Shown: piece by piece, positions 15,552 through 56,874 of the stretch
Position numbering within the stretch: position 1 is the first letter of the stretch
How the letters are laid out: every line of letters begins with the position of its first letter
Assembly (NCBI GenBank): GCA_016432285.1
Contig: CP066682.1
Coordinates: 188,273 to 252,272, forward strand
Length of the DNA stretch: 64,000 nt
Direction: 5' to 3'
DNA from: Candidatus Kaiserbacteria bacterium
GTDB taxonomy: Bacteria; Patescibacteriota; Minisyncoccia; Phycocordibacterales; UBA2100
Made by a program: the position numbers and the translations under genes
The notes under the pieces: generated by a model
The model's input: only the letters and a program-made list of their open reading frames with translations
Database searches by the model: none
Told to the model about the DNA's origin: nothing

Positions 15552-15611
15552 ACGAGCGATTTCGAGGCCGGTATACTATAGCACCGCGCCCACAGTATAA
15601 TAATTTATCGT

Positions 15612-32318: not shown

Positions 32319-32321
32319 CGT

Positions 32322-33685: not shown

Positions 33686-33700
33686 AGTACACTGTTCCGC

Positions 33701-35415: not shown

Positions 35416-35511
35416 AAGGATGTACGTGGATAATGAGTATGTCTCCAAAATACCCCCCCTCCCCAATTTCGCAAGCAGCCCCGCCGGATAAGTCAATGCT
35501 ATACTTTTTGC

Positions 35512-38358: not shown

Positions 38359-38394
38359 TTTCCGCGCCGCGGAAAATATGGTAGTCTCCTTTCC

Positions 38395-38997: not shown

Positions 38998-39053
38998 CAA
39001 GTCGCCGCACCCTTCATAGAGACTTCCGGCAGGCTGGTGCTATACTTTCGGTA

Positions 39054-39212
39054 GCGGCTGGTACTTAAACCTGCTTGGTTCAAGTAAGGGATTCTCATAT
39101 CGCTTCGCGCCTTGGCGCGAATGCTGCGGAAACCCACCTGGTCTCCAAAGCCCAGGCTTGCCGTACCTGCCGCAACAAAAAATCCACTGTACACAGTGGA
39201 TTTTTTGTTTTT
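39054..39212 (+). ncRNA. candidate small RNA (~160 nt) with its own TGCTATACT promoter (39038-39046) and an intrinsic terminator (39177-39212)
   Basis: No credible ORF; promoter motif identical to the genome-typical -10; three internal hairpins; AAAAAATCCACTGTacaCAGTGGATTTTTTGTTTTT terminator; a separate promoter for the downstream gene follows. Confidence 0.3.
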
Positions 39213-39254
39213 AAGACGCACGATTCTCAACGTTCTTGGTGGTACAATCCCACG

Positions 39255-39632
39255 ATGTCGGCGCGCGCACTTCTCTTTTCGCAGTTTTTGGCGCTCCTGG
39301 CGCTCTCGCTTATCCATATTTTCGGCCTCACCTACTATTGGTACTGGATCTGGCGCTGGCTCGACATCGTTACCCACCTCCTTGGGGGATTGTGGGCGGG
39401 CTTTTTTGTGCTGTGGCTCGCAACACTGCTCGGGAAGCGCGTCTCGCTCATACAAGCGGTCATCATCGGGTTTCTCATTGGAATTGTGTGGGAGATATTC
39501 GAGAACTCCATCGGCGCGCTCGACCTGCGGGCTGAGTGGCTCGACACGCTCAAGGATCTTTCCATGGACGTGGTCGGTGCCTGCATCGCGTGGTTTGTAT
39601 CCCGCGCGCTCTCGAATCGCGCCGAAAAGTGA
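39255..39632 (+). CDS. small membrane protein (125 aa, Trp-rich TM helices)
   Basis: Extended -10 TGgTACAAT at 39240-39248, 6 nt upstream of the ATG. Confidence 0.5.
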   Translation: MSARALLFSQFLALLALSLIHIFGLTYYWYWIWRWLDIVTHLLGGLWAGFFVLWLATLLGKRVSLIQAVIIGFLIGIVWEIFENSIGALDLRAEWLDTLKDLSMDVVGACIAWFVSRALSNRAEK

Positions 39633-39649
39633 TGCTATACTGAATCGCA

Positions 39650-40336
39650 ATGTCCGCGCGCAAGATTATCGATCCGAACCACATGGCGGTTCCGCGCAAT
39701 TTCTGCCGCCTGCCGCAAAGTTACGGCGTGGTCAAAATCTGCGTATCCGGAGCCGCCGACACGGGGTATTGCGGGCTCGATGCGTTTGAAAAGGCAAAAG
39801 AGGTGGGCCGCGAGATCGCGCGACAGGGCGCGATCATCACGACCGGCGCTACCACCGGCTTTCCGCTCTACGCAGCCATGGGCGCCAAGGACGAATGCGG
39901 ATTTTCGATCGGTTTTTCTCCCGCCGCTACGGAGCGCGAGCACGTCGAGGTCTACAAGCTGCCGCTCGAATATATGGACGTGATTTTGTATACCGGTTTC
40001 GGCTATTCGGGTCGCGATTTGCTGCTGGTGCGCTCGTCGGACGCCGTCATCATCGGATGCGGCCGCATCGGCACCCTCAATGAGTTTTCCGTCGCCTTTG
40101 AAGACCACCGCCCCATCGGAGTGCTTGAGGGCACGTGGGAGACCGACGAGATCATTCGCCGCGTCATCGAATCGGCGCATCGCCCCAACAGCAAGATCAT
40201 CTACGACTCCGACCCGAAGGCGATGGTAGAGCGGCTCATCGAGCTTGCCATGAAAGACAAGGAGAATGCGAATCTCGTCTTCAACAACCCCGAAAAGTGG
40301 GACGCCGCCGGCAAGAACGCCGAGTACATTCTCTAA
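39650..40336 (+). CDS. LOG/TIGR00725-family Rossmann-fold protein
   Basis: Motifs KICVSGAAD, IITTGATTG, VIIGCGRIGTLNE; TGCTATACT 8 nt upstream of the ATG. Confidence 0.65.
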   Translation: MSARKIIDPNHMAVPRNFCRLPQSYGVVKICVSGAADTGYCGLDAFEKAKEVGREIARQGAIITTGATTGFPLYAAMGAKDECGFSIGFSPAATEREHVEVYKLPLEYMDVILYTGFGYSGRDLLLVRSSDAVIIGCGRIGTLNEFSVAFEDHRPIGVLEGTWETDEIIRRVIESAHRPNSKIIYDSDPKAMVERLIELAMKDKENANLVFNNPEKWDAAGKNAEYIL

Positions 40337-40890
40337 AAGTCGTACACGTACAAAATGTGCTGATTGTGGCCCCCTTCCCGCATGTGGAGCCGCACGCCGG
40401 AAACAGGCTCCCGCTCCTTGAAGCTGAAGGCACGCGAGACGAGTCGTCCCCGAAAGTCGCGTGCGAGCAGCGGTTCCAACCGGGCGAGATTTGAAGCGAG
40501 AAGATACGCATATATTTTTGTCGCACCCGAAAAGTCCGATGCAAAGAGATCGCCGCGCTGAAAACGCATATTGCGAGGGTTGCCCGCGAGCAGCTTTCTC
40601 AAAAGCGCAATGAGGTGCAGGGTGCGGCTTTGCTCGATACCGACGAATCGTGCCCCTGGCAAAAGCTTCGCACAGCGAAGCAGGAGGCGCCCGTCGCCGC
40701 TTCCGAGGTCGTACACCACATCGCCGTCCGTAGCTTCGAGCGCATGCAAAACCGCCTGTGCAAAGGCGGGCGGGGTCGGCACAAAGGGCGCGTCGCTCGC
40801 GGCCGAGGCTGCGAATTTCACCGCACGGAGCAGAAAAAAGAAAAGCGCTGCAAGCAGCGCGATCTGGAGGAGAATGACGAAGGCAAGCAT
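40333..40890 (-). CDS. class I SAM-dependent methyltransferase with N-terminal TM
   Basis: Motif I VVYDLGSGDGRLLL. Confidence 0.65.
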   Translation of the reverse strand: MLAFVILLQIALLAALFFFLLRAVKFAASAASDAPFVPTPPAFAQAVLHALEATDGDVVYDLGSGDGRLLLRCAKLLPGARFVGIEQSRTLHLIALLRKLLAGNPRNMRFQRGDLFASDFSGATKIYAYLLASNLARLEPLLARDFRGRLVSRAFSFKEREPVSGVRLHMREGGHNQHILYVYDF

Positions 40891-40912
40891 CGCCTCACTC
40901 TAGCATCTGCTT

Positions 40913-41260
40913 CTACTGTGAGAGCTGCTTGAGAACGCGTTCGAACACCTGCGGGTGATCCTTTGCGAGCGCGGAGAGCGATTTGCGATCGAGGGCGATC
41001 TTGCTCCGCTTGAGGGCCCCGATCAGCTTCGAGTACGAAAAGCCCAAGGGGCGGGCCGCAGCGTTGATGCGAAGCGACCAGAGGTTGCGGAATTCGCGCT
41101 TTTTGGTGCGGCGATGGCGGAAGGCGTAGTTGCCGGCGTGAAAAATCGCTTCGCGCGCCACACGCTCCTTACTCTTGCGGTCGAAGCGGTAGCCCTTGGT
41201 CTGCGCAAGAATGTTCTTGCGACGCTTCGTTTTTTGTACTCCTCGTTTGACGCGTGCCAT
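40913..41260 (-). CDS. rplT: 50S ribosomal protein L20
   Basis: MARVKRGV...; conserved L20 sequence. Confidence 0.93.
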   Translation of the reverse strand: MARVKRGVQKTKRRKNILAQTKGYRFDRKSKERVAREAIFHAGNYAFRHRRTKKREFRNLWSLRINAAARPLGFSYSKLIGALKRSKIALDRKSLSALAKDHPQVFERVLKQLSQ

Positions 41261-41266
41261 ACGATG

Positions 41267-41455
41267 TTAGCGAGGGAGGAAGCGGCTCTTTGCCGTGTTG
41301 TCGAGCGCTGCGTGGAAGGCAGTCGCGCGGCGGCGGCGGATGCGGCCGGTGCCGGATTCCTTGGCGTTGAAATGGTTGTGCCCGGGCACGCGTGCGACGA
41401 TCTTACCCTTGCGGGTTACCCGGAGTCGCTTCGAGTAGGATTTGTTGGTCTTCAT
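41267..41455 (-). CDS. rpmI: 50S ribosomal protein L35
   Basis: Small basic protein in the infC-rpmI-rplT arrangement. Confidence 0.85.
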   Translation of the reverse strand: MKTNKSYSKRLRVTRKGKIVARVPGHNHFNAKESGTGRIRRRRATAFHAALDNTAKSRFLPR

Positions 41456-41514
41456 AGAAAGACTGCGGCACAGCCGCAGTTCTGGCAGTATGCCGGAAAA
41501 AAGGGAAAACGCAA

Positions 41515-42126
41515 CTACCCCTCTTTCTTTTGCGGAGGCGTCTCCGAAGCCACCGCGACTACCCTCGCCACCGCGTTGCGCTTCTGGGGATCACGCTCCA
41601 GGGTCACCGCGAGCCCTTTCGGGCTCTTCTGGACCGGCTCGGCGATCTTGTAGTGTTCGGGGATGATGGCGAGGAATCGCTCGAGACGCTCCTTGAGGAA
41701 GTTGAACTCCATGTATTTGTAGCGGCCCCACAAAAAGAGGTCGACCTTCACGCGGTGTCCCTCTTTGAGCCACTCGGCTGCCTTCGAGGCCTTGATGTGC
41801 ATGTCGCGCTCCGACGTGCCGATCTTCACCTGCGTGACTTTCGTTTCGGTGATGTGCGCTTTCGCCTTCACCTCCTTCTCCTTCTTTTTCTGCTCGTACT
41901 TAAACTTGCCGTAGTCGGTGATTTTGCACACTGGCGGTTGCGCGTTGGGGGAGATCTCGATGAGATCGAGTCCGGCTTCCTGCGCCCGCGCGATTGCCTC
42001 TTTGAGCGGAAGCACGCCGACGTTTTGGCCTTCGGGCCCGATGACGCGAACTTCAGAGGCGCGGATACCCTCGTTCATGCGAACGCGCTCCTTCTCCGCT
42101 TGCGAGGTGTATTTGGTAAAACCCAT
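41515..42126 (-). CDS. infC: translation initiation factor IF-3
   Basis: NEGIRASEVRVIGPEGQ..., DLIEISPNAQPPVCKI; ATG at 42126 with TGCTATAGT 10 nt upstream (ORF-track start 42150 is TTG). Confidence 0.85.
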   Translation of the reverse strand: MGFTKYTSQAEKERVRMNEGIRASEVRVIGPEGQNVGVLPLKEAIARAQEAGLDLIEISPNAQPPVCKITDYGKFKYEQKKKEKEVKAKAHITETKVTQVKIGTSERDMHIKASKAAEWLKEGHRVKVDLFLWGRYKYMEFNFLKERLERFLAIIPEHYKIAEPVQKSPKGLAVTLERDPQKRNAVARVVAVASETPPQKKEG

Positions 42127-42193
42127 TTGTCGAAAGACTATAGCACGCAAGGCGCGAGCGCGACAATTCTACAAAAGCACGCGTCTTTGCAGC

Positions 42194-43573
42194 CTATTCG
42201 TAGATCTCCTCGTCATCGTACGGCGGCGGACTCCTGAAGCTGAAGGGCTTCAGATAGTTGAGAATACCGAGCACGGTGCCTTTTAAATCGTTGAGCACTT
42301 TCAAGAGGTTGGATTGCGGCTCCGTGGTGCCCGTACCCGCGTTGCCCCTGAAGTCGTCGGAGATAAATGTCTCCTGCGAGGTAGGCACGAGCGTGCCCGC
42401 GTTTGTACCTCCCTGCGAGACTTGTTGCTGCTGCGAGGCTTGGAGCCGCGCCGCATCCTCTGCACTCACCACAATGATGGGCGGGGCAATCTCCGGTTGC
42501 TGCTGGTTCGCGTTGGGGCCCGCGATCGAATTGATCTGATCGATCGCTGACACTTTTGTCGTGCTCGTGCTGCTCGTCCCTTTCGGCGCGTTCTTCAGTG
42601 CTTCCGCGAGTAAGTCGGATGTGGGCGAAGGATTGCATTCCGTGCCCGTGCAGCCGTTGGGGCAGCTCTGGTAGAGCTGATCGACGCAGGTGCTCGTGCG
42701 GTAGTAGCGATCCGACCCGAGGCAGCGAAACGCGGGCGCGCAGACCCCCTGCTGGTACGCAGTGGAATTGACTGCACTCGCGGGGGGAGGGGCCGACCCT
42801 ACTGGTGCGGCGCCGCCACTCGGAGCTCCTCCACCACCTCCGCCGCCCGGCGGCGCACTTCCGCTGTTTTGGATCGCATTACAAGGGACTCGCAAACCGT
42901 CGGGAAGCGTGCACATCTGCTGCGATTGGTCGCCTTTTCCGAGGAGTCCTTCTCGGAGCGCTCCGGAGATGCCCGAAGAGGGGGAGAGGCTCAAGCCTGG
43001 CGCCGCGCCTCCTGAAGCAATTTCGCCCGCGACGGCACCGGATGGCTCGATGTGCCATGGCTCGTTGCCCAAGCGGAATGTCAGTCCGACTCGTGCGGCC
43101 GCCTGCTGGGGAATGCCATCGTCAGGCATATTACAGAGATCGGCCGCGAGCCCCTTATTGTGATTGGAGCCGCCTGGAGGCGCCACCCATTTTCGCGCTA
43201 TCTCCGCGCTTCCATATTTTGCAAGCGCTCGCTGCCAAAGCACCGCTTGTGTCGCGTTGGATCGGTAGGCGCTGTTGATACAGACACTCGGGTACGCGGC
43301 AAGCAATTTGGCGAGGCGGCACCCGAAGTCGCCATTCAGTTTGTTGATACCATCGGCGCCCTCGACCGCGCTTTTGGGGCCGGGCGTGTAGCGCGAGCGG
43401 AGCAATGGATACGGATTGCTTTCGCAGCCGCCGGTTACCTTTTTCAGATCCTCCGCATTCAGGATGTCGGCGTTGCCCTCAATGAGCGCGGCAAACGACG
43501 GCAGCGCGAGCGAAAGCGCGATAAGCGGCACGAGGAGAGCGATCAGTGCGTGGGATTTTTTGCGACTCGGCAT
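42194..43573 (-). CDS. secreted peptidase M15 (VanY-like D-Ala-D-Ala carboxypeptidase fold) with Cys-rich and Gln-rich C-terminal regions
   Basis: Signal peptide; SNHNKGLAADL and EPWHIEP zinc-ligand motifs. Confidence 0.7.
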   Translation of the reverse strand: MPSRKKSHALIALLVPLIALSLALPSFAALIEGNADILNAEDLKKVTGGCESNPYPLLRSRYTPGPKSAVEGADGINKLNGDFGCRLAKLLAAYPSVCINSAYRSNATQAVLWQRALAKYGSAEIARKWVAPPGGSNHNKGLAADLCNMPDDGIPQQAAARVGLTFRLGNEPWHIEPSGAVAGEIASGGAAPGLSLSPSSGISGALREGLLGKGDQSQQMCTLPDGLRVPCNAIQNSGSAPPGGGGGGGAPSGGAAPVGSAPPPASAVNSTAYQQGVCAPAFRCLGSDRYYRTSTCVDQLYQSCPNGCTGTECNPSPTSDLLAEALKNAPKGTSSTSTTKVSAIDQINSIAGPNANQQQPEIAPPIIVVSAEDAARLQASQQQQVSQGGTNAGTLVPTSQETFISDDFRGNAGTGTTEPQSNLLKVLNDLKGTVLGILNYLKPFSFRSPPPYDDEEIYE

Positions 43574-43580
43574 ATTGTAG

Positions 43581-44195
43581 CTACGCACCCCCGCACGCGG
43601 TCCACATGCCGCGCTTCAACTCTCTCGCCGCCGCCTCTGCGGACTTGAAATCGTCTTGATACTTGTAGGCAATTCCTTTGAATGTGTACTCGCGTCCGTA
43701 TCCTCCGGAGATGAGGTACTCGTTGACGAGTACGCCGTCCGGATTCGCGCTCGTCGGCACATACACATACGCGAGGAGGCGGCCGTACGAGTCGTAGAGG
43801 TTTTGCGTCGGGTCGGTTTCGATCCGCACCGACGAGCCGCCAAGGAGCTTTTGCGCTTCGTCGGTAGCCTCCTTTGCAAAGCACTCGCGCGGCTCGGCCA
43901 TTTCTGGGGTGTCGACGCCGATGAGACGGATGGAAACCGTCTTGTCTCCGTTTCTGATCGAAAGCGTATCGCCGTCGGTTACTTTCGCGACCGGATACCA
44001 TTGGTACGCCGGGACGTAGACTTGCTTTTCGGCTTTCTTCACGTTACCCGGTGCCTCGCCGACCATCTCTTGCGTTGGCTGTCCTGAACCGGATTTGATT
44101 TTGAGCGTGGCTGAGACCGCCTGGTATCCGAAGAGAACGATGACGCCGACGCCGATCACCGAGGTAACGAGCGTGGCGATCTGCTTGGCGCGCAT
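43581..44195 (-). CDS. membrane-anchored thermonuclease (SNase-like)
   Basis: VTDGDTLSIRNGDKTVSIRLIGVDTPE; minus-strand TGcgcTACAAT promoter 6 nt upstream. Confidence 0.8.
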   Translation of the reverse strand: MRAKQIATLVTSVIGVGVIVLFGYQAVSATLKIKSGSGQPTQEMVGEAPGNVKKAEKQVYVPAYQWYPVAKVTDGDTLSIRNGDKTVSIRLIGVDTPEMAEPRECFAKEATDEAQKLLGGSSVRIETDPTQNLYDSYGRLLAYVYVPTSANPDGVLVNEYLISGGYGREYTFKGIAYKYQDDFKSAEAAARELKRGMWTACGGA

Positions 44196-44236
44196 CGCTC
44201 CATTGTAGCGCAGGGTTTTCGGGGTAGTATGGCCCC

Positions 44237-44662
44237 ATGGTGGAAGTTGTGCGTTTGGAAAGAGCCGACCAGAAGGCGCTCGCGGAGGTGAATGCGGTGT
44301 TGGCGCAGCTCGATGAAAACAAAGTGGCGACTCTCGAATCCCTCCAAGCTCTCGTTAAAAGTCCTGATGCCGAGCTGTGGACCGCGCAGGTGGACGGAGC
44401 AATCGTGGGTATAACGACCCTCTGTTTTTCCCGGCGACTCACCGGCCTTTCGGCGCGTATCGAAGATGTGGTGGTGAGCGAATCGCAGCGTGGTAAAGGA
44501 CTCGGGAAAGCCCTCTGCCAGGCCGTAATCGAAAGCGCGCGCGCGAAGGGCGCGCGCTGGGTCAACCTCACAAGCCGGCCGGAGCGGGTGGCGGCAAATC
44601 AGATGTATCAGAAACTCGGTTTTGAAAAAAAAGAGACAAATGCGTATCGGATGAAACTCTAA
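44237..44662 (+). CDS. GNAT family N-acetyltransferase
   Basis: QRGKGLGKAL acetyl-CoA binding motif. Confidence 0.75.
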   Translation: MVEVVRLERADQKALAEVNAVLAQLDENKVATLESLQALVKSPDAELWTAQVDGAIVGITTLCFSRRLTGLSARIEDVVVSESQRGKGLGKALCQAVIESARAKGARWVNLTSRPERVAANQMYQKLGFEKKETNAYRMKL

Positions 44663-44684
44663 AACGAAGGGCTGCTATCCCTCT

Positions 44685-46094
44685 ATGCAGTACATTTCCA
44701 CCCGCGGTAAGGCACCGGCGAAGCGTTTCTCAGAAATTCTGCTCGAAGGACTCGCTGCGGACGGAGGTCTCTACGTACCGGAAGCGTATCCGATCGTTTC
44801 GGACGAAGAGCTCACGCACATGCGGAGCATGAGCTACCCGGAGCTCGCCTTCGCGGTGCTCTCGAAATTTGTCGACGACATTCCGGCCGACGATTTGAAG
44901 CGGATCATCGATGCCACCTACACGAAGGAGGTTTTCGGCAGCCGCGACATCGTGCCCCTCAAGAAGCTCGAGGACGGTTTGTACCTCCTCGATCTCTCGG
45001 AAGGACCGACGCTGGCCTTCAAAGACATCGCCTTGCAGTTGCTCGGGAGGCTGTTCGAGTATGCGCTTTCAAAAACCGGCGATTCGCTCAATATCCTCGG
45101 CGCCACGTCGGGCGATACCGGCTCCGCTGCGGAATATGCGATGCGCGGTAGGAGCGGCGTCAATGTCTTCATGCTCTCGCCGTGGGGGCGCATGAGCGAC
45201 TTCCAGCGCAAGCAGATGTATACGCTCCAGGACGCAAACATTTTCAACATCGCGATTCGCGGCGCCTTCGACGACTGCCAGGATGCGGTGAAAGCGGTCA
45301 ATGAGGACGCGGATTTCAAGCGAACGTATAAGCTGGGCGCGGTCAATTCGATCAATTGGGCGCGCATCGCGGCGCAGGCCGTGTACTACTTCAAGGGCTA
45401 CTTCGCCGCCACCTCGTCGAATGCGGAGATGGTTTCCTTTGCCGTGCCGAGCGGCAATTTCGGCGACGTGCTCGCGGGATATATCGCAAAGCGCATGGGA
45501 TTACCAATCGCGCGACTTCTGGTGGCCACCAACGAGAACAACGTGCTCGACGAGTTTTTCAAAACAGGCACCTACCGCCCGCGGCCAACCTCCGAAGTGG
45601 CCGTTACGTCGTCGCCCTCGATGGACATCTCCAAAGCATCGAACTTCGAGCGGTACGTCTTTGATCTCGTGAGGCGCGATGCAGCGCGCATGGCGAAGCT
45701 GTGGGGCGATCTCAAAACGAAAGGCTCGTTTACGATTTCTCCGGAGGAATTTTCGCGGATCGCCGCCGACGGTTTCGCTTCGGGATCGTCTACACACGCC
45801 GACCGCCTCGCGACCATCACATCGTTGTACGAAACATACGGCGTGCTCATCGACCCGCACACCGCGGACGGCGTCACGACCGGACAGAGACTGAAAGGGG
45901 AGGAGCCGCTGATCTGCCTCGAGACGGCGCTTCCGGCGAAGTTTGCGGCGACGATCAAGGAAGCGATCGGGAAGGAGCCGGAAGCGCCGGAGAGCTTCGC
46001 GAAACTCCTCGACCTCCCGGAGCGAGTGGAAGTGATGGACGCGGACCCTCAAAAAATCAAAGACTTCATCGCCTCCCACGCCCCACTTACCTAG
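44685..46094 (+). CDS. thrC: threonine synthase
   Basis: PLP fold, PTLAFKD lysine motif, length 469 aa. Confidence 0.9.
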   Translation: MQYISTRGKAPAKRFSEILLEGLAADGGLYVPEAYPIVSDEELTHMRSMSYPELAFAVLSKFVDDIPADDLKRIIDATYTKEVFGSRDIVPLKKLEDGLYLLDLSEGPTLAFKDIALQLLGRLFEYALSKTGDSLNILGATSGDTGSAAEYAMRGRSGVNVFMLSPWGRMSDFQRKQMYTLQDANIFNIAIRGAFDDCQDAVKAVNEDADFKRTYKLGAVNSINWARIAAQAVYYFKGYFAATSSNAEMVSFAVPSGNFGDVLAGYIAKRMGLPIARLLVATNENNVLDEFFKTGTYRPRPTSEVAVTSSPSMDISKASNFERYVFDLVRRDAARMAKLWGDLKTKGSFTISPEEFSRIAADGFASGSSTHADRLATITSLYETYGVLIDPHTADGVTTGQRLKGEEPLICLETALPAKFAATIKEAIGKEPEAPESFAKLLDLPERVEVMDADPQKIKDFIASHAPLT

Positions 46095-46102
46095 CACAGA
46101 GA

Positions 46103-46156
46103 CCTGTCCTCTGGGAAATGCAGTGAGGTGTCACCTCACTGCATTTCCCAGACAGG
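46103..46156. repeat. 54-nt near-perfect inverted repeat (CTGGGAAATGCAGTGAGGTG / CACCTCACTGCATTTCCCAG arms) between thrC and lexA
   Basis: 20+ bp perfect arms read directly; no T-run. Confidence 0.5.
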
Positions 46157-46157
46157 C

Positions 46158-46186
46158 TTGACGGTGAACGATCGTTCACTTAGAGT
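46158..46186 (+). promoter_or_regulatory. lexA promoter (TTGACG-17-TAGAGT) with a Cheo-type LexA box TGAACGATCGTTCA (46165-46178) in the spacer
   Basis: Perfect GAAC-N4-GTTC palindrome immediately upstream of lexA. Confidence 0.7.
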
Positions 46187-46192
46187 TGAGGG

Positions 46193-46756
46193 ATGTACCA
46201 GACGTACAAAAACAAGGTCATTGCTTTTTACGAGCGTCAGCGGCGGATGCCGAGCTACGCTGAGATCATGGCGGCGACAGGTCTTCGATCGAAGAACGCC
46301 GTCTTCAAGCTCGTCGCGAAACTGATCGAGGAGGGAATCGTCCGCAAAGACGCACGTGGACGTTTGCTGCCGCACAAGATGGGATACGCCCGCCTCCTCG
46401 GTGTCGTGGAAGCCGGATTTCCTTCGGCGGCCGAGGAGGAGCTTCTCGACGTGATGGATTTCGACGAATATCTCGTGCCCAACAAAGAGTCGAGCTACAT
46501 CCTGAAGGTGAAAGGGGATTCCATGATCGAAGCGGGCATCCAGCCGGGAGACATGGTGATCGTCGAGCGGAAGGCCTCGTACAAGCCGGGGCAGATCGTG
46601 GTCGCGAGCATCGACGGCGAGTACACTATGAAGTACCTCCGCAAAAAGGGCGACTCTTATTTTTTGGAGCCGGCGAATCCGAAATACAAACCGATCTATC
46701 CGGGCGAGAGCTTTCGCGTGGAGGCAGTCGTTACCGCCGTCGTCCGCAAATACTGA
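46193..46756 (+). CDS. lexA: LexA repressor
   Basis: N-terminal wHTH; S24 peptidase KGDSM and catalytic Lys region. Confidence 0.9.
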   Translation: MYQTYKNKVIAFYERQRRMPSYAEIMAATGLRSKNAVFKLVAKLIEEGIVRKDARGRLLPHKMGYARLLGVVEAGFPSAAEEELLDVMDFDEYLVPNKESSYILKVKGDSMIEAGIQPGDMVIVERKASYKPGQIVVASIDGEYTMKYLRKKGDSYFLEPANPKYKPIYPGESFRVEAVVTAVVRKY

Positions 46757-46892
46757 TATGACACACGCACTTGGCGCATTTCGTCGTTGCGGGCTCCGCT
46801 GCTCCCTCAATGTACTGTTCGTACATCTCGGTTCACTCCTCGCCCGCGCCTCGAACTGCATCCAAGTGCGCGCGTCATATTGAAAGTGAGGT

Positions 46893-48197: not shown

Positions 48198-48220
48198 AAA
48201 AATCCTGCTATACTCACGGC

Positions 48221-48871: not shown

Positions 48872-49170
48872 CGCTTCAGAGAGAGTCGGTGCAGGATCCG
48901 GCACGGCTCCACGATCCGCGGGTCGACGATATTGTAAAAGGCGCTGGTGCCGCTTCGGCGTACCGTTACGAGCCCCGCATGCCGCAGGAGCGCGAGGTGC
49001 TGGGAAACGTTCGTCTTTGAAATGCCGAGCTCCTCGATGAGATCGTGCACGCCCAGCTCCTGCTCGCGGAGGAGATTCAGAATCTCCAACCGCTTCGGGT
49101 TGGCGAGCAGTTTGTAGGTCTCCGAGTTTTTCTCGTACGCGGAACGGGGGAGCGGGCGCTTGATGCTCAT
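48868..49170 (-). CDS. ArsR/SmtB-family transcriptional regulator (second copy)
   Basis: HTH GVHDLIEELGISKTNVSQHLALLRHAGLV; minus-strand TGCATACT 10 nt upstream of the ATG. Confidence 0.7.
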   Translation of the reverse strand: MSIKRPLPRSAYEKNSETYKLLANPKRLEILNLLREQELGVHDLIEELGISKTNVSQHLALLRHAGLVTVRRSGTSAFYNIVDPRIVEPCRILHRLSLKR

Positions 49171-49291
49171 TGTTTCCAAAGTATGCAATCAGTGCGCCCG
49201 GCGCGCAAGCGCGCCGCTTGTCCCCACGCGGCTGCGGGTCGCATCCGCGCCTCCTGTACAATGAGTTGCATAGTTTCGCAATTATCTAACT

Positions 49292-49570
49292 ATGATCTAC
49301 GTTGAGACACCGCTCCGACGCCTCCGCAGGCTCTGGCGAATTGGCGCGGGCGCGCTCCTTCTTGTGGGCGGCTTCGTATTGCTGCTGCTCGCACCGAGCG
49401 CGCGGCAAGAATCGCACACGGTGGTTTTCGACGACTCATCCATCGCATACGCCGATGCGCCATACGTGCCGCCGCCACCGGATCCGCTTCCGCCGCCGCA
49501 GGATCCGGGATGGGGGTGGTCGCAGAGTTCGGGCGACGGTGCAGGGGATGGCGGCGGCGACTGCCCGTAA
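49292..49570 (+). CDS. module copy 3, small TM peptide (92 aa): AYADAPY, Pro-rich, GWGW, Gly/Asp tail
   Basis: Motif SIAYADAPYVPPPPDPLPPPQDPGWGWSQSSGDGAGDGGGDCP; TGTACAAT -10 at 49255-49262. Confidence 0.55.
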   Translation: MIYVETPLRRLRRLWRIGAGALLLVGGFVLLLLAPSARQESHTVVFDDSSIAYADAPYVPPPPDPLPPPQDPGWGWSQSSGDGAGDGGGDCP

Positions 49571-49577
49571 CTAACGT

Positions 49578-50771
49578 ATGGATGAATTCGAGCAGGCAGG
49601 AAAAAACAGGATCGGCGTCGTGGCCATCGCCCTCGGGATCGTTGGTTTTGCGCTCGTCGCGCTTTTTTTCTACGAGTTTGCTCTCCTGAAGCGCGACGTC
49701 GGTGATCTTGCGGGTCCGAAGCCGGTGGGCGCGATCGAGGCCGTCCAACTACAAAAGCTCTACAACCTCGCGGAGGGTGGCGACTACGCGGCCGCCAGTC
49801 GGGAGGCCGAAGAAGGGATCGCGCTGTGGAGCGAGGACACGGTGGCTGGACAGCGCGCGCGCTCCGTCAAAGTGACAGCCGATTTTTGGAGCGGGGAAAA
49901 GGAGAAGCGTCTCGATGCCGTGCGCGCGACCAAGGTGCAGCTCCAGGAGAGCCCGGGAACGCCCTACAATCAGGCGCTCTTCGTCAACCGCCTCCTCAGT
50001 TACATGACGACGGCCATGGAGCCGGAGATCATCGACGAGATTTTCAGCGGCGAGTTTGCATCCATGCGTGTGCCGGGCGACGACGTCGCCTCGCTCGGTA
50101 AGCTTGCGGAATACTCGCTCTCGAAGGACTATACGAATCTCGCCAATTTCAAAGTCGGCATCGTCCATGCGGCGGAGCTTTTCAAACACTTCGACGGCGT
50201 GAAGCAGCTCTCGTCGGCGGAACTTGCCGAGTACGTGAGCGCGATCCGCAAGGTGATTTCTGAAACCTCGTCGCACCTTGAGGAGGAAGAGCGGCGCATG
50301 TACGGTCGGCCGTACTGGGAGCTCCAGGCGCCCGCCTTCTACTACTTCCAAGGGTTCCTGCGCGCCTCGATCGCGCTCGCGTATCCAGAGTACCTCCCGA
50401 GCGCGAAAGAAGCTCTCCGCCAGGTGGAGCAGTACTACCGCGACCGTCGCACCGAAAGCGGCGGCCCCAACAAAATGATCGAGGCACGCGTCGTGTACAC
50501 CAACTTCTCGCTCGCCACCTTCATGTATGCGATCGAAGGCGAGCAGAGTAAGCCGCAGGTGCAGGCGGCACTCCAGACCATCATCGATTTGGTGGAAGCC
50601 GATCCCGAGGCGCACAAGGGCGCATTTCTCACATTCATGCGTCAAACGCTTGAGGATGGCCCCGATCAACCGAAAGGTCGCTGGTACAGCTACGGCCGGT
50701 TCGTGCAGATGGCCGACCTCTATCCGCCTTTCAAGCAATTCCTGAATTCGTACGGGTGGGATCTCGAGTAA
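49578..50771 (+). CDS. module copy 3, ~397-aa N-terminally anchored protein
   Basis: ATG 7 nt after the peptide stop; C-terminal FKQFLNSYGWDLE matches the copy-1 C-terminus FKNFLASVGWQFE. Confidence 0.6.
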   Translation: MDEFEQAGKNRIGVVAIALGIVGFALVALFFYEFALLKRDVGDLAGPKPVGAIEAVQLQKLYNLAEGGDYAAASREAEEGIALWSEDTVAGQRARSVKVTADFWSGEKEKRLDAVRATKVQLQESPGTPYNQALFVNRLLSYMTTAMEPEIIDEIFSGEFASMRVPGDDVASLGKLAEYSLSKDYTNLANFKVGIVHAAELFKHFDGVKQLSSAELAEYVSAIRKVISETSSHLEEEERRMYGRPYWELQAPAFYYFQGFLRASIALAYPEYLPSAKEALRQVEQYYRDRRTESGGPNKMIEARVVYTNFSLATFMYAIEGEQSKPQVQAALQTIIDLVEADPEAHKGAFLTFMRQTLEDGPDQPKGRWYSYGRFVQMADLYPPFKQFLNSYGWDLE

Positions 50772-50819
50772 ACGCGCTTCATCCGTATAACATCATCAGT
50801 CCTTACACTGTATTTTTAA

Positions 50820-51031
50820 TGGCGTGGCCACGCAGATCACGGATTCGCCGGTTGCGATCCCCGGTGAAGGACGAGTATGCGCCCGAGGAAGCTCGGGCCC
50901 GGGTCGCGTTTGATTCGGAGGGTAACGAAGTCGCGATGCCAAAAAAGGGCGAACGAGAGCCCCGCGTCATCACGCGTCTGCGGGAGGCCATGATCGTCGG
51001 CTGGGATGCCGCCCGCGCAAAGTCTGCCTAG
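50820..51031 (+). CDS. possible small charged protein (70 aa)
   Basis: Internal ATG in ORF 50756..51031; weak support. Confidence 0.25.
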
Positions 51032-51089
51032 CTTGCGCCCTCCCGTTTGCGGTGGGACACTGCCTTCATTACGAGGGTAACTTTTTTGC

Positions 51090-51587
51090 ATGGAACCTAC
51101 TTCCACAGGCAGCAACAAGTTGTATTACATTATCGGCGGTGTCGTCGCGCTTTTGGTGCTCGGCTGGCTTTTGACGCGAGGCTTTGGTGGCGCGGCGGGA
51201 GCGAATGTCGATCGCAATTTTGACGGCTCGACGACCTACTCCAATGAGGAGGGGAGCGTAACGGTGGGCGCGCAGAGCATGCCGGCCAATTGGCCGTCGG
51301 ATGCGCCGCAGAATTTCGCAGGCGCGACGATCAGCTTCTCGGGCGCGTCGAATCCGCAGACCGGACAGGCCGGTGCGGCCGTTTCGTACACCGTGCGCGC
51401 ATCCGCACAGGCGGTGATCGATTACTACCGCGGCAGCCTTACTTCAGCGGGCTGGACGATCGTGGGAAGCGCGAATGCGGGTGGCGCGACGGTGATCTCC
51501 GCCGCCAAAGACGAGCGCACCTTTGGCGTGTGGGCCACGGACAATGGCGACGGCAGCGCGACAGTGACGGCGGGCGTGGGGATGTAA
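51090..51587 (+). CDS. membrane-anchored hypothetical protein (165 aa), Gly/Ala/Ser-rich ectodomain
   Basis: N-terminal TM helix. Confidence 0.5.
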   Translation: MEPTSTGSNKLYYIIGGVVALLVLGWLLTRGFGGAAGANVDRNFDGSTTYSNEEGSVTVGAQSMPANWPSDAPQNFAGATISFSGASNPQTGQAGAAVSYTVRASAQAVIDYYRGSLTSAGWTIVGSANAGGATVISAAKDERTFGVWATDNGDGSATVTAGVGM

Positions 51588-51601
51588 AAAGTTTCTACCA
51601 C

Positions 51602-51628
51602 AAAAGCCGCCCCGCAGGGCGGCTTTTG
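51602..51628 (+). terminator. rho-independent terminator (GCCGCCCcgcaGGGCGGCtttt)
   Basis: GC stem plus T-run. Confidence 0.6.
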
Positions 51629-51888
51629 TATGTGTGGGGGAATCGATCACAAATAATGCGCTCGCGGTCGCATCGCAGGGAATCGGTCAGGCGCTCAAAA
51701 AGTCGCCGTCGCGACTTTTCTCCGCCTGACCACGATTCCAGCAGATGGGAATCGCCCGCGCCTCTCGCGCCGCCGTCGCGGCGCTCGGGCTGGGCACCGC
51801 CTCGCTGCCTCGCGTGCTCGCTCGGCATCGCTCCGGCGTTCGATTCCCCCACGCAGAGCGCGCAGGCGCTCTGCTCACCTCCACAAAA

Positions 51889-51923
51889 CAAAAAGCGCCT
51901 TGCGGCGCCAATTGTTTGTTTTG
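51889..51923 (-). terminator. terminator of ssrA (GGCGCCgcaaGGCGCtttttgttttg on the minus strand); its U-tract can also pair with the tmRNA 3' end (17-bp inverted repeat 51876-51892 / 51915-51931)
   Basis: Read directly from the sequence. Confidence 0.5.
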
Positions 51924-52321
51924 TGGAGGTGGGGGGAATCGAACCCCCGTGCAGAGAGAAACAGCATGCATGTGTCTACGGAGCGTAGATCATCTTGATC
52001 CGCCGGGTGGCGGATTTAAGCGTCGCGCATAAAAGATGAGCGAAAGCGCGCGAAACCGAGTCCAGTTTCTTAGATATCGCTCGGACAGGTCGACATCAGC
52101 GCTTGAGTGAAGTGACGTTCTGCCAATCGTAATCAAGCATCGGATTGGAGAACGGTCGCTTAGGCTATTGCGTAAGCGAACTGAAGGTCCTTCACCTGAA
52201 TCGGTGAAAGAACTCCCTGTGCTACTTTGTTCGCACTTGAGATTGTGAACGGGTTTGGAGAGACGTTCGCTCTCGCCCGCGCATGGATGTGTCGATCCCT
52301 CTGTCGAAGCCAGTCACCCCC
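51924..52321 (-). ncRNA. ssrA: tmRNA (SsrA), ~398 nt
   Basis: 5' end GGGGGUGACUGGCUUCGACAGAGGG (tRNA-Ala-like acceptor with G3:U70); 3' T-arm/acceptor GGGGGUUCGAUUCCCCC-CACCUCC-A; CCA not encoded; candidate tag ORF ends ...DLQFAYAIA-TAA. Confidence 0.8.
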
Positions 52322-52367
52322 GAAAAGCGCACTTCATTTCGCTTTTCACGAACGGCTGGATTCTCCT

Positions 52368-52811
52368 CTATTTGTTTTTCAACGAACGTTCGATCCTGCG
52401 TTTCTCCTCGCGCGCACGTATACTCTGACGCTTGTCGATCTTTTTCTTTCCACGCGCGATTGCGATCTGCAATTTCAGATTCCGGCCTTTATTATATACA
52501 CTAATCGGCACAATTGTCAACCCCTTTTCGCCCTCTGCCGAAGCCACATGCGCGATTTCTTTTTGCGAGAGGAGCAGCCGACGCGGCCGCTCCGGATCGT
52601 AGCTCTTCGGCGTGTTGCTCGCTTGCCACGGCGGGATCGTCGCGCCCACGAGGTACGCTTCGCCGCCGCGCGCGATCACGCGCGCGCCCTTGAGGGAGCC
52701 GCGCTTTGCGCGCAGCGATTTCACTTCGATACCGAGCAAATCCAAACCGGCCTCCATCTCTTCGACGATCGAGTAATCAAATCCGACACGATCGTTTCTG
52801 ACGAGCGACAT
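52368..52811 (-). CDS. smpB: SsrA-binding protein SmpB
   Basis: VGFDYSIVEEMEAGLDLLGIEVKSLR..., basic C-terminal tail; it is the C-terminal 147 codons of ORF 52368..54218. Confidence 0.9.
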   Translation of the reverse strand: MSLVRNDRVGFDYSIVEEMEAGLDLLGIEVKSLRAKRGSLKGARVIARGGEAYLVGATIPPWQASNTPKSYDPERPRRLLLSQKEIAHVASAEGEKGLTIVPISVYNKGRNLKLQIAIARGKKKIDKRQSIRAREEKRRIERSLKNK

Positions 52812-52856
52812 CGATTTACTATACCGCCAAAGGTCATTGTGTATAATGCGCTTCTT

Positions 52857-54791
52857 ATGGCACAGCCCCAGAGCGACCAGAAGCAGAAAAAGAGCAGCGG
52901 CCCCAAACTGCGCAGACCGCAGGGAGGCCCATCGATCTGGTTGCAGCTCGGGCTCGCGTTCGCGATCTTTTTGGTGCTCTCCGTGGGTTACTCCTTCCTG
53001 CGCGAATACATCGTTACCGAAAGCGAAACCGTATCGCTCTCCGAAATCGCGAGCGACATCGAAGCGGGGAAGATCACCGAAGTAACTGTCGCGGGAGACT
53101 CCGTGACCGCCACGTACGCCGACGGCACCGAAAAGAAATCCCGCAAAGAAACGGAAGCCTCCTTTACCGAAACGCTCGCCAACTACGACGTCTCGGCCAA
53201 TCGCATCAATGCGGTGAAGGTGTCGATCGAAGATGAGGGCGGAGCGCGCTTCTGGTTCCTCACCCTGGCGCCCCTCCTCGTGCCGGTGCTCCTCCTCTTT
53301 GGCATCATCTGGTACCTCTCGCGCCAGATGCGCGGAGCCGGCATGCAGGCCTTCACCTTCGGCCGCTCGCTCGCGCGTCTCGTTTCCCCAGAAGACCAGG
53401 CGCAGCGGGTTACCTTCGCCGACGTGGCCGGTGCGCGCGAAGCCAAGGAAGAGCTCACCGAGATCGTCGATTTTTTGAAAAATCCAAAGAAGTTCATCCA
53501 GATCGGCGCGCGCATCCCCAAAGGCGTGCTCCTCATGGGCGCTCCGGGCACCGGCAAGACGCTGCTCGCCCGCGCCGTCGCGGGAGAAGCCGGAGTGCCC
53601 TTTTTCACCATCTCTGGCTCGGAGTTCGTGGAGATGTTCGTGGGTGTGGGCGCATCGCGCGTTCGCGATCTTTTTGAAACGGCGAAGAAGGCAGGGCCCG
53701 CGATCGTCTTCATCGACGAGATCGATGCGGTGGGCCGCGTGCGCGGCACTGGCGTGGGAGGTGGCAACGACGAACGCGAGCAGACCCTCAACCAGATTCT
53801 CGTGGAGATGGACGGCTTTGAGCCCAACGAGAAGATTATCGTCATGGCGGCCACCAACCGCCCCGACGTCCTCGACCCCGCGCTCTTGCGGCCCGGCCGT
53901 TTCGACCGGCGCGTCATGATCGACCTCCCGGATCGGAAGGATCGCGAAGACATTTTGAAAACACACGCGCGTCAGAAGCCTCTCGGGCCCGACGTGAAGC
54001 TCTCCGTGATCGCGGAGCGCACCCCCGGGTTTTCGGGAGCCGATCTTGCCAATCTCATGAACGAGGGAGCGATTCTCGCCGCGCGAGAGAACAGGAAGGA
54101 GATCGCGCAGTTCGACCTCATCCGCTCCATCGAAAAGGTGATGCTCGGTCCCGAGCGCCGCAGCCATGTACTGAATAAAAAAGAGAAGGAGATCACGGCG
54201 TACCACGAGGCCGGGCACGCGCTCATCGCCTCAGTGCTGCCGTACGCCGATCCGGTGCACAAGGTGTCGATCATCTCGCGCGGCCGGGCGGCGGGCTACA
54301 CGCTGAAGCTGCCGCTTGAGGATCGGAAGATGCAATCGCGCAAGGAGTTTCTCGACGACATCGCCGTTTCGCTTGGCGGATTTATCGCCGAGAAAATGAT
54401 TTTTGAAGACGTTACCACCGGCGCCTCCAACGACCTCCAGGTGCTGACCGCGCTCGCGCGCAACATGGTCGCGCGTTACGGCATGTCGGAAAAAATGGGA
54501 CCGGTGGCCTTCGCCGCCTCGGCGCAGCGCGCCATTTTCGGCGAAGGAGTGGATGGTGAAGCCTCCGAAGAAGTAACGGCCGCGATTGACGCGGAGGTGC
54601 GCCGCATCATCGACGGTGCATACAAAAAAGCGGAAAAAGTGATGACGAAGCACCGCGGCGCCCTGGATGCGATTGCCAAAAAACTGGTGGAAGTGGAAAC
54701 GATCGAGCGCGACGACTTCGAGAAAATCCTCATTGCGCACGGCATCACCCCGAAGAAAAAAGAGGACATCGAGCACCAGCCGCTCGTCTGA
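52857..54791 (+). CDS. ftsH: ATP-dependent zinc metalloprotease FtsH
   Basis: Two N-terminal TM helices, AAA module ([13 protein letters not shown]), HEAGHA zinc motif; TATAAT at 52842-52847, 9 nt upstream of the ATG. Confidence 0.95.
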
Positions 54792-54800
54792 TCGGCGCGG

Positions 54801-55886
54801 CTACCTTTTCACCTGCCAGCGGATGACCTCGTTGCCGAGGCCGTGCTGCACATGGCCGATCGGCCACACCTTCACGCCCTCGGAGGTGATCACTGGCTCC
54901 GTAACCTGCCAGTCTTTTTTGATGAGCGTGATTCGCTCCTCGCTCGGCTGTATGCCATAAAAACGCGGACCGTTGATCGAAAGAAAGTTCTCCAGCTTGT
55001 CGAGCGCACCGAGCTCGTCAAAAACTCCCGTGTACATTTCGAGCGCGGCGGGGGAGCAGAAGACCCCGAAGGTAACGCATGAGGAGAATTTCTTGGATTC
55101 GGGATGCGGAGCGCTGTCGGAGCCCGCGGACACGAACGGGAGGCCCCTTTGTGCGAGCGCGCGCACCCGCTCCCGATCCTCGCGCCGCTTCACGAGCGGT
55201 TTCATGTGGATGAGCGTGCGGTAGCCGCCCGAAAACGCCTGGCGCCGATCGTAGAGGAGGTGCGTCGGCGTGATCGTCGCCACGAGTTTTCCCTCCGCGC
55301 CGTTCTTTTCAATGAAATCGGCGGCGATGGCGGTCGACATGTGCTCAAGCGAGATTTTGAGCCTCGGGAAGGCATCGAGGAGCCGCGGCAGTGTATCTTC
55401 CACAAAGAGCCGCTCGCCCTCGTACGGATCCTCCTCCTCGTCGTGGTCGTTGAGGTGCACTTCGCCGTGGAGCATGAGCGGCATGCCGACGCGCTCCATT
55501 TCCCGCAGCACGTCTTTCGCCTCGAGGATGCTCCGGTAGCCCCACTGCGAATTGGTCGTCGCGCCGTACGGGTACGACTTCACCGCATACACTTTTGCGC
55601 TCGCTTCGCCGGAGAAACCCTTCGCGATCTCGGCGGGCGAGAGATTTTTCGTGAGGTAGAAAGTCATCAGCGGCTCGAAAGTGCTGCCTTCCGGCACCGC
55701 TGCCATGATCTCCTCTTTGTATGCCGCTGCCGCTTCGGTGGTGTCGATCGGCGGATCGGTGTTGGGCATCACGATCGCGCTGAAGAATTTTTGTGCAGTG
55801 ATGGGCGTGACGGCCCGGAGCATCGCGCCCTGCCGCAGGTGCACATGGGAGTCGAACGGACGCCGTATCGTTATCGAATCCGTCAT
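54801..55886 (-). CDS. pyrC: dihydroorotase (type II, E. coli-like)
   Basis: DSHVHLR..., conserved alignment to class II PyrC; ATG at 55886 (ORF-track GTG at 55889); minus-strand TATACT 7 nt upstream. Confidence 0.9.
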   Translation of the reverse strand: MTDSITIRRPFDSHVHLRQGAMLRAVTPITAQKFFSAIVMPNTDPPIDTTEAAAAYKEEIMAAVPEGSTFEPLMTFYLTKNLSPAEIAKGFSGEASAKVYAVKSYPYGATTNSQWGYRSILEAKDVLREMERVGMPLMLHGEVHLNDHDEEEDPYEGERLFVEDTLPRLLDAFPRLKISLEHMSTAIAADFIEKNGAEGKLVATITPTHLLYDRRQAFSGGYRTLIHMKPLVKRREDRERVRALAQRGLPFVSAGSDSAPHPESKKFSSCVTFGVFCSPAALEMYTGVFDELGALDKLENFLSINGPRFYGIQPSEERITLIKKDWQVTEPVITSEGVKVWPIGHVQHGLGNEVIRWQVKR

Positions 55887-55931
55887 CACAGAGAGTATAC
55901 AGCAAAGGCCGCAGTGCTATACTGGCCCCTG

Positions 55932-56837
55932 ATGCAGCATCTCGTGGAGACACAGCAGTTTGACCGAGCAGCTCTGAAGCGACTTTTTGAACTCGCGTCC
56001 TCGCTCGAGGGCAAGCGAGAAGAATCTCTAAAAGGCAAAATACTTGCCTCTCTTTTTTATGCGCCCTCGACGAGGACGCGGCTTTCCTTCGAGTCCTCGA
56101 TGATGCGGCTCGGCGGCAACGTCATCTCCATGGAGAACGCGAGCGAATCCTCCTCCGCGACAAAGGGCGAGTCCATCGAAGACACGATCCGCATCGTTGA
56201 CGACTACGCCGACGTGATCGTGCTCCGCCACACCGAGGTCGGCACTGCCGCCCGGGCGGCAGCAGTTTCAAGAGTCCCCATTATCAACGCGGGAGACGGC
56301 GTCGGGCAGCACCCCACCCAATCGTTCCTCGATCTCTACACCATCGAGCGCGAGATCGGTCGCACCGACGACTTCCACATTGCCTTCGTCGGCAACCTCG
56401 CGTACTACCGGAGCGCCCGCTCGCTCGCGTACCTCCTCGGCAAATACAAAAACGTGAAGATGACCTTTGTCTCGGGCCCCGAGCTTGGCATGAAAGACGA
56501 CGTGAAGGAATACCTGAAAGAAAAGAATGTGGATTTTACGGAGACGGAGGATCTGGAAGGAACGATGCAGATCGCCGACGTGGTGTACCAGACGCGCATG
56601 GCCGAGGAGTGGATTCCCAAAGGTACGGATTTTGAAAAGCTGCGCCAGAAATACACGATCACGCGCCCCATGACCGATCACATGAAAGATGGGGCGATTC
56701 TCATCCATCCGCTGCCGCGCGCGGGCGAGATCTCGCCCGACGTCGACGACTCGCCGCACGCCGTTTACTTCAAACAAGCCGCGTACGGCGTGCTGGTGCG
56801 CATGGCGCTCCTCAAGCTGTTTTTCGGCAAGGCGTGA
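55932..56837 (+). CDS. pyrB: aspartate carbamoyltransferase catalytic subunit
   Basis: STRTR, HPTQ, HPLP motifs; TGCTATACT 8 nt upstream of the ATG. Confidence 0.9.
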   Translation: MQHLVETQQFDRAALKRLFELASSLEGKREESLKGKILASLFYAPSTRTRLSFESSMMRLGGNVISMENASESSSATKGESIEDTIRIVDDYADVIVLRHTEVGTAARAAAVSRVPIINAGDGVGQHPTQSFLDLYTIEREIGRTDDFHIAFVGNLAYYRSARSLAYLLGKYKNVKMTFVSGPELGMKDDVKEYLKEKNVDFTETEDLEGTMQIADVVYQTRMAEEWIPKGTDFEKLRQKYTITRPMTDHMKDGAILIHPLPRAGEISPDVDDSPHAVYFKQAAYGVLVRMALLKLFFGKA

Positions 56838-56874
56838 ATCGCGCTTTCCCCAGCGAGGTGCTATTGTGGCGCTC

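Follow-up and report, generated by a model that had tools for sequence, protein, structure and literature searches.

The 64,000-nucleotide (nt) stretch of a Candidatus Kaiserbacteria genome analysed here (assembly GCA_016432285.1, contig CP066682.1, positions 188,273 to 252,272 of the forward strand; hereafter the window, whose own numbering is used throughout) carries near-identical 9-mers resembling extended -10 promoter elements directly ahead of many of its genes, and our subject is what this element implies for transcription and translation. The window has a GC content of ~59% and contains a transfer-messenger RNA (tmRNA) and tRNA-Ile(TAT). The nearest relatives of its TraG/VirD4-like ATPase (948 amino acids, 35512-38358), at 85% amino-acid identity, come from metagenome-assembled genomes (MAGs) named Candidatus Kaiserbacteria or Patescibacteria. 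In the ribosomal protein (r-protein) operon, rpsE is followed directly by rplO with no rpmD in between, a junction consistent with the absence of uL30 from bacteria of the Candidate Phyla Radiation (CPR; PMC9297842). Our gene table holds 75 genes with starts curated by hand; the labels SLOG, DUF3298+PdaC, pyrB, malic enzyme, infC, PRTase-PQQ, ftsH, S10, L3, ArsR-like HTH, SNase, RecG and amidohydrolase (pyrC) are backed by Pfam. For comparison we used 80 related loci totalling 1.31 Mb. A sequence-only reading of the window had proposed that the 9-mers sit 6-12 nt upstream of start codons, that the mRNAs are therefore leaderless or have very short leaders, and that the conserved TGC prefix hints at a lineage-specific contact with sigma factor or RNA polymerase.

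The 9-mers are strongly enriched and non-randomly placed. Measured against dinucleotide-preserving shuffles of the window, TGCTATAST occurred exactly seven times where 0.13 matches were expected (a count of seven was reached in 0 of 100 shuffles) and TGCTATWNT eight times (0.97 expected); all eight of the latter sites are intergenic and oriented towards the downstream gene or a noncoding RNA (ncRNA). The coordinates given in the sequence-only reading were all correct, and the pattern that it described is real. With spacing defined as the number of nucleotides between the end of the hexamer and the start codon, TAYANT-N6-ATG was found 8 times (0.69 expected) and TAYANT-N7-ATG 5 times (0.60 expected). 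Of the 32 TATA[ACG]T hexamers that the window contains, 26 fall between genes and 15 are followed by an ATG at offset 6-10, six of these at offset 6. The generic pattern TGNTANNNT was not enriched overall in the window (31 matches, 34 expected) and is informative by position alone. A two-hexamer scan of the window for paired -35 and -10 elements returned 7 matches (5.1 expected), a method that is uninformative for promoters of this kind.

Position was assessed independently of gene calls by recording the frequency of ATG at each offset after -10-like hexamers, limited in the related loci to ATGs opening open reading frames (ORFs) of >= 60 amino acids. In related loci with GC >= 0.5, such ATGs peaked at offsets 6 and 7 (86 and 59 occurrences versus a background of ~6), and the same peak was present in more distant, lower-GC Parcubacteria loci (GC < 0.5; 63 and 35 versus ~8). 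It is specific to one start codon: at offsets 6 and 7 the related loci gave 156 and 98 ATGs, 13 and 8 GTGs, and 3 and 9 TTGs, and no offset peak was seen after -10-like hexamers for GTG, TTG, CTG or ATT. The clade profile shows T at -17 (~42%), a purine at -16, T at -15 (47%) and G at -14 (57-73%); position -13 is mixed, and the hexamer follows as T A t/c A a/c T. Around -35/-34 there is no more than a slight T-rich signal. Hexamers such as TATACT, TATAGT, TATAAT, TACAAT and TAGAGT all keep the invariant T-12, A-11 and T-7, and in the related loci 70-75% of sites have a pyrimidine (C or T) immediately ahead of the ATG. A TGN triplet precedes 34% (139/404) of TAYANT-ATG sites; where no ATG is adjacent, TGG is the sole TGN triplet among the top eight, at 91/3839 (2.4%). 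The -10 box is localized 6-8 nt before the starts of first genes and not before those of internal genes.

Within the window, exact copies of TGCTATACT lie on the plus strand at 35497..35505, 6 nt before the ATG (35512) of the TraG/VirD4-like ATPase gene, a site that had been overlooked; at 39633..39641, 8 nt before ATG 39650 of an SLOG cluster4/LOG-like gene; at 48206..48214, 6 nt before ATG 48221 of a gene for a DUF3298 + PdaC/DUF4163 protein; and at 55915..55923, 8 nt before ATG 55932 of pyrB, divergent from the pyrC promoter (TATACT, 55894-55899, minus strand, 7 nt before ATG 55886). A further copy, at 39038..39046 (+), is followed by no ATG and precedes a conserved structured ncRNA. Variants include TGCTATTGT at 56859..56867 (+), 7 nt before ATG 56875 of the malic enzyme gene; TGCTAAGCT at 5564..5572 (+), 6 nt before ATG 5579 of a gene for a 290-amino-acid protein; TGCTAGAGT at 40897..40905 (-), 6 nt before ATG 40890 of a gene for a 185-amino-acid membrane protein; TGGTACAAT at 39240..39248 (+), 6 nt before ATG 39255 of a membrane protein gene and just past the terminator of the ncRNA; and TGGTAGTCT at 38379..38387 (+), 7 nt before ATG 38395 of ndk. 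Hexamers at comparable distances precede tuf (TACAAT, 2473..2478, +, 7 nt before ATG 2486), an ArsR-like gene with its start at 3861 (a -10-like box at 7 nt), purD (TACACT, 33688..33693, +, 7 nt before ATG 33701 and overlapping the end of the upstream gene), ftsH (TATAAT, 52842..52847, +, 9 nt before ATG 52857) and, divergently from ftsH, smpB (TATAGT, 52818..52823, -, 6 nt before ATG 52811). The gene for a staphylococcal-nuclease homologue (TACAAT, 44202..44207, -, 6 nt before ATG 44195) faces away from a second promoter, TAGTAT at 44225-44230, 6 nt before ATG 44237. A LexA-like S24 peptidase gene has TAGAGT at 46181..46186 (+), 6 nt before ATG 46193, and recG has TATAAT at 62695..62700 (-), 6 nt before GTG 62688, the sole GTG case in the window; the public gene call agrees with that start and gives a 723-amino-acid product.

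Placement 6-12 nt from a start thus held for the 9-mers at 39633, 48206, 55915, 56859 and 42137 (infC, below) and, among the 'related' elements of the sequence-only reading, for those of the ArsR-like gene, the membrane gene at 39255, ftsH, the nuclease homologue, pyrC and recG. It failed for TGCTATAGT at 15575..15583 (-), which lies 23 nt from ATG 15551, the only possible start of the PRTase-PQQ beta-propeller gene, leaving a short leader without a Shine-Dalgarno (SD) site, and for TGTATAGT (21398-21405), which contains the r-protein operon promoter TATAGT (21399..21404, +, in cTGTATAGT) and is separated by ~93 nt from the start of rplC (ATG 21499); the proposal of leaderless mRNAs for every listed site does not extend to these two leadered genes. 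The CATACT of rpsJ (ATG 5032), at 11 nt, is borderline. The PRTase-PQQ element overlaps its divergent neighbour in a back-to-back pair of promoters forming a near-palindrome (15572-15601), with TATACT/TATAAT on the plus strand facing gene 15612 and TATACT/TGCTATAGT on the minus strand facing gene 15551. Overall, ~28 of ~44 transcription-unit-first genes, including tuf, smpB, ftsH, pyrB/pyrC, ndk, lexA, purD and recG, have TANNNT 6-10 nt before the start, ~16 lack an adjacent box, and ~28 genes are operon-internal; all of these counts come from the hand-curated table and are approximate.

Orthologue alignments revealed that, ahead of first genes, both box and spacing persist while the surrounding intergenic sequence diverges. 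Scoring a TANNNT box 5-9 nt before the ATG, we found it in 36 of 38 species for the TraG-like gene (at exactly 6 nt in 30) and in 25 of 27 SLOG orthologues. A box precedes 34 of 45 ndk orthologues, 7 nt being the commonest spacing; it lies at 6-8 nt in 10 of 13 orthologues of membrane gene 39255 and at 6-7 nt in 22 of 32 of purD. Operon-internal controls, granted a wider interval of 5-11 nt, carried TANNNT in 3/38 (rplO), 3/40 (rplT), 2/36 (rplF) and 3/39 (rplR) cases, so that by orthologue counts the box marks ~8% of operon-internal genes versus 70-95% of first genes. Coding conservation begins at the proposed ATG, with ATGCCTCC... in the TraG-like protein and ATGGGATTCAC... in that of infC. 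The infC promoter itself (TGCTATAGT, 42137..42145, minus strand, 10 nt before ATG 42126) is distinctive: in ~20 species among the orthologues in L001-L039, the region corresponding to 42127-42145 combines TGnTATAGT with a conserved 10-nt spacer (...cgacaaATG), giving a fixed predicted leader of 3-4 nt, as opposed to the usual 6-7-nt spacing elsewhere. Because IF3, the infC product, disfavours leaderless mRNAs in E. coli, this conserved spacer could be an autoregulatory feature.

The TGCTATACT copy at 39038 provides a control in which no start codon is involved. Downstream of it, between ndk and the membrane-protein gene, lies an ncRNA of ~160 nt (~39054-39215, +) that ends in an intrinsic terminator and folds with a minimum free energy of -70.7 kcal/mol (z -6.3). 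Searches with nhmmer located it in 32 of 80 Kaiserbacteria-like loci, and no Rfam family matched it at gathering score or with the threshold relaxed to E <= 10. It comprises one hairpin with many compensatory changes and a long-range closing stem, has the invariant blocks ACCTGCTTGG, ACCCACCTGG and CCAGGCTTGCCGTACC, and carries a ~40-nt insertion in a subset of loci. In all 32 loci a -10 box, mostly of the TGnTATACT type, lies 6-7 nt before a conserved 5' AGCGG, and the conserved 5' end and closing stem begin 7-8 nt past the box. The occurrence of the same box at the same spacing ahead of an ncRNA argues for a promoter acting at the DNA level; judged from its sequence setting, the box at 39038 is a promoter, which rules out a signal for translation. 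In several relatives the T-tract of the ncRNA terminator runs straight into the -10 box of the next gene, the membrane gene, leaving no room for a transcription start further upstream.

No SD signal accompanied these starts. In the offset test, GGAGG, GGAG, GAGG and AGGA displayed codon periodicity only, with no positional peak in the window or the 80 loci, whereas the identical script run on 50 kb of E. coli K-12 containing the same r-protein operons recovered a peak for GGAG at 5-8 nt and none for the -10 hexamer. In two of the 75 window genes an SD-like motif stands at a workable distance (7990, AGGAG at 8 nt; 12142, GGAGG at 4 nt), a number at or below chance, and neither first nor internal genes exhibited SD localization in the window or the loci. 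Internal genes of the window start between -4 and +10 nt relative to the stop codon of the gene before; the sequence ahead of them is A/T-rich and poor in G at -8 to -3, with T at -1 in 74% of cases (61% in the loci). Along the r-protein operon (22100-33700, +), internal starts lie 1-12 nt past the upstream stop, with the recurrent contexts AATAGTATG (three times), AATAATATG (twice) and ATAAnnTATG. This organization suggests that downstream cistrons are probably translated by termination-reinitiation and not by independent SD-guided initiation.

In the region 21359-21498 (+), the leader of the rplC (L3) operon spans the ~93 nt that follow TGTATAGT and contains two hairpins, one of which, just before the ATG, is terminator-like (aaaacgcccgccattgtgggcgtttt, then Ts); it may be an r-protein autoregulatory attenuator. 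The S10 gene rpsJ stands outside this operon, 16 kb away and adjoining tuf.

We propose that the 9-mers act as sigma-70-type extended -10 elements (T-15 G-14 n T-12 A-11 t a n T-7), most of them lacking a usable -35; the non-enriched two-hexamer scan and the faint trace at -35/-34 would fit -35-independent promoters of the extended -10 type, whose activity is predicted. RNA polymerase would start 7-8 nt past the hexamer, on the A of the ATG: a pyrimidine at -1 with A at +1 fits the start-site rule, and with six bases in between, this A falls at the canonical +1. The resulting mRNA would begin 5'-AUG, or with 1-4 extra bases, and the ribosome and initiator tRNA would bind the 5'-terminal AUG directly, with no SD pairing. 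About 28 of the ~44 transcription units in the window would be built in this way, and their downstream cistrons would be reached by termination-reinitiation in the A/T-rich, G-poor context with T at -1. Positional statistics, footprinting, the near-exclusive use of ATG, the pyrimidine at -1, the missing SD signal and the ncRNA control together give strong in silico support to leaderless or very short-leader mRNAs, as the sequence-only reading had held, and we put the probability of this account at roughly 0.8. A broader possibility, that through leaderless first cistrons transcribed from extended -10 promoters and internal reinitiation in a G-poor U(-1)AUG setting a whole CPR clade (Kaiserbacteria and neighbouring Parcubacteria/Paceibacteria) has given up SD-guided initiation altogether, is one that we advance tentatively, at slightly less than even odds.

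Several points weigh against the leaderless account. We infer the transcription start from geometry alone, and the mode of ribosome recruitment is likewise deduced. The boxes of SLOG, pyrB, ftsH, infC and rpsJ stand at 8-11 nt, which implies leaders of 1-4 nt rather than strictly leaderless mRNAs. Other units are plainly leadered, namely rplC (~93 nt), PRTase-PQQ (23), gene 58071 (27) and gene 7990 with its AGGAG at 8 nt. The gap to the upstream same-strand gene is short for SLOG (17 nt), DUF3298 (23) and purD (15), and with promoters so close behind an upstream gene, read-through leadered transcripts may coexist with leaderless ones. Gene starts were curated by hand, making the 28/44 share approximate. 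A search with regions 2-3 of E. coli sigma-70 as query matched no homologue in the window or the 80 loci, and 16S rRNA 3' ends, sought in the same sequences for a reading of the anti-SD, were absent from all of them.

A clade with no SD signal needs some other translation signal, and A/T-rich sequence also lies ahead of operon-internal starts; the motif might on these grounds be a non-SD ribosome-binding or translation-enhancer element inside a longer 5' untranslated region transcribed from further upstream, as in the 'group B' of GeneMarkS-2 (for example, Bacteroidetes). We regard this as very improbable, because the motif agrees with the extended -10 consensus at each of its defined positions (T-15, G-14, T-12, A-11, T-7), is sparse among operon-internal genes relative to first genes, keeps its 6-7-nt distance from the conserved 5' end of an ncRNA and, at the membrane gene of several relatives, directly abuts an intrinsic terminator; ATG exclusivity and the pyrimidine at -1 also agree with transcription start-site rules. 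Nor do we give any more credence to the idea that the box-adjacent ATGs are not true starts and that translation begins at a downstream codon of mRNAs with ordinary leaders. Start sites in MAGs are predictions only, and that of rpsJ, with a 41-residue extension ahead of the S10 domain, is uncertain. Against this, orthologues align from the first codon and upstream conservation collapses except at the box, Pfam domains begin near the proposed starts (residue 2 in pyrB, residue 3 for GARS_N), and the peak at offsets 6/7 is specific for ATGs that open ORFs of >= 60 amino acids. That the pattern is a chance by-product of base composition, given intergenic DNA that is more A/T-rich than coding DNA in a 59% GC genome, can be practically dismissed: shuffles preserving dinucleotides never reached the observed counts, the ATG peak is narrow and restricted to offsets 6-7, and box and spacing are kept in up to 36 species per gene.

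The extended -10 account leaves aside the base at -13, where the sequence-only reading had seen a hint that sigma factor (here, the housekeeping one) or RNA polymerase makes a contact peculiar to this lineage, beyond TGn. TGn is the canonical extended -10 element. The window carries 10-12 TGN sites; at its TGN-TANNNT-ATG sites the base is C in 8/10 and G in 2/10, with none A or T, and C in 10/12 when the ncRNA and PRTase-PQQ promoters are added. As C occupies ~30-32% of the relatives' TGN sites when pooled, the window excess has p ~0.003 by a binomial estimate, and a few relatives also lean towards C (5/5 in L023, 5/9 in L036). Across the 80 related genomes, however, the triplets before TAYANT-ATG were TGA 50, TGC 45, TGG 26 and TGT 18, all spacing-6 sites in the clade gave A 35%, G 37% and C 17% at -13, and orthologous promoters exchange the base freely (TraG-like, TGA 15/TGC 4; ndk, TGC 11/TGT 7; SLOG, TGA 6/TGC 6/TGG 5). 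The window sample is 10-12 sites from one 64-kb stretch, and the 6 kb of the same genome available past its right end, a type I restriction-modification (R-M) operon without typical promoters, offered no hold-out test of C at -13. A special contact is therefore unsupported and unlikely, and the excess of C in the window is at most a mild genome-specific bias.

Other features were noted in and beside the window. The promoter of the LexA-like gene (46158-46192, +) has a -35 element, rare here, of TTGACG with a 17-nt spacer, and a GAAC-N4-GTTC palindrome between -35 and -10; the palindrome is like the Gram-positive Cheo/SOS box, which suggests autoregulation. Inside the smpB coding region, 52491-52520 (-) contains a promoter sequence that matches the sigma-70 consensus at all 12 of 12 positions (TTGACA, 18-nt spacer, TATAAT) ~170 nt upstream of the tmRNA 5' end (52321), a candidate ssrA promoter. 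A non-coding gap of ~270 nt between rplE and an rpsN-like ORF (27612-27880, +), with TATAGT at 27696 and no nearby ATG, could be another small RNA or a leader. At 58035-58799 (+), a low-GC ORF of 221 amino acids (GC by codon position 0.49/0.41/0.52), has TGATATAAT 27 nt upstream and runs at its 3' end into the beginning of tRNA-Ile(TAT); it may be of mobile or foreign origin. Past the right end of the window, positions 5730-11579 of L081, which is the same genome (100% identity over the overlap), hold a cation-efflux gene and the type I R-M operon (hsdR, hsdM, hsdS); lacking the typical arrangement of -10 box and ATG, the hsd operon may be horizontally acquired. This genome is also present in sequencing runs SRR12113420 and SRR12113422, whereas the proteins at the left edge of the window had no database record.

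The mechanism itself is not new, as the same leaderless architecture is textbook knowledge for mycobacteria and Deinococcus. What it would provide here is a testable picture of gene expression in an uncultivated CPR lineage. CPR ribosomes are unusual, having no uL30 and often no uL1 or anti-SD, and leaderless initiation would account for how such genomes manage without SD sites. If true, clade-wide abandonment of SD use would match, on the side of the mRNA, the anti-SD loss reported in Parcubacteria, and it would imply mainly 70S-type, 5'-AUG-driven initiation in reduced ribosomes. Start prediction based on ribosome-binding sites (RBSs) is blind in such genomes; a -10 box 6-8 nt before an ATG offers a rule for finding start codons and operon starts in CPR MAGs, and the promoter sequences could serve future genetic tools. 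A literature search of incomplete coverage turned up no paper in which leaderless mRNAs are tied to CPR, Patescibacteria, Parcubacteria or Saccharibacteria, which leaves novelty unproven; the architecture, known elsewhere, is apparently unreported for CPR.

Among known systems, the window promoters resemble the extended -10 (TGn) promoters used by E. coli sigma-70 and the '-16 region' (TRTG) promoters of Gram-positive bacteria, with which they share T-15/G-14 one base before TAnnnT and a weak T-17/R-16. In extended -10 and TRTG promoters the -35 element is dispensable, and in E. coli they normally drive leadered mRNAs. Here, only some one third of sites carry TG, and the TGN sites of the window mostly have C at -13. 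In archaeal leaderless transcription ('group D' of GeneMarkS-2), most transcription units likewise start at or beside the start codon, but the archaeal TATA box lies ~26 nt upstream, as against a bacterial -10 at 6-8 nt here. In published work on bacteria, leaderless transcription is recognized by a Pribnow box lying 6-8 nt from gene starts, the hallmark of GeneMarkS-2 group C, to which 90% of Actinobacteria and 97% of Deinococcus-Thermus were assigned (PMC6028130). Like group C organisms such as Mycobacterium tuberculosis and Deinococcus deserti, the window pairs the same first-gene -10 box at 6-8 nt with a large predicted leaderless share (~28/44 units), although that paper (PMC6028130) lists no CPR or Parcubacteria among its lineages. 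The remaining genes of group C are described as RBS-using, whereas neither first nor internal genes are associated with localized SD motifs here; the unusual point appears to be that SD use is absent for internal genes too. Within the same superphylum, an anti-SD motif was undetectable in a subgroup of Parcubacteria (Tsurumaki et al. 2022, PMC9297842), a study that covered rRNA and did not describe mRNA recognition, and the missing SD signal in the window and its relatives is what such anti-SD loss predicts.

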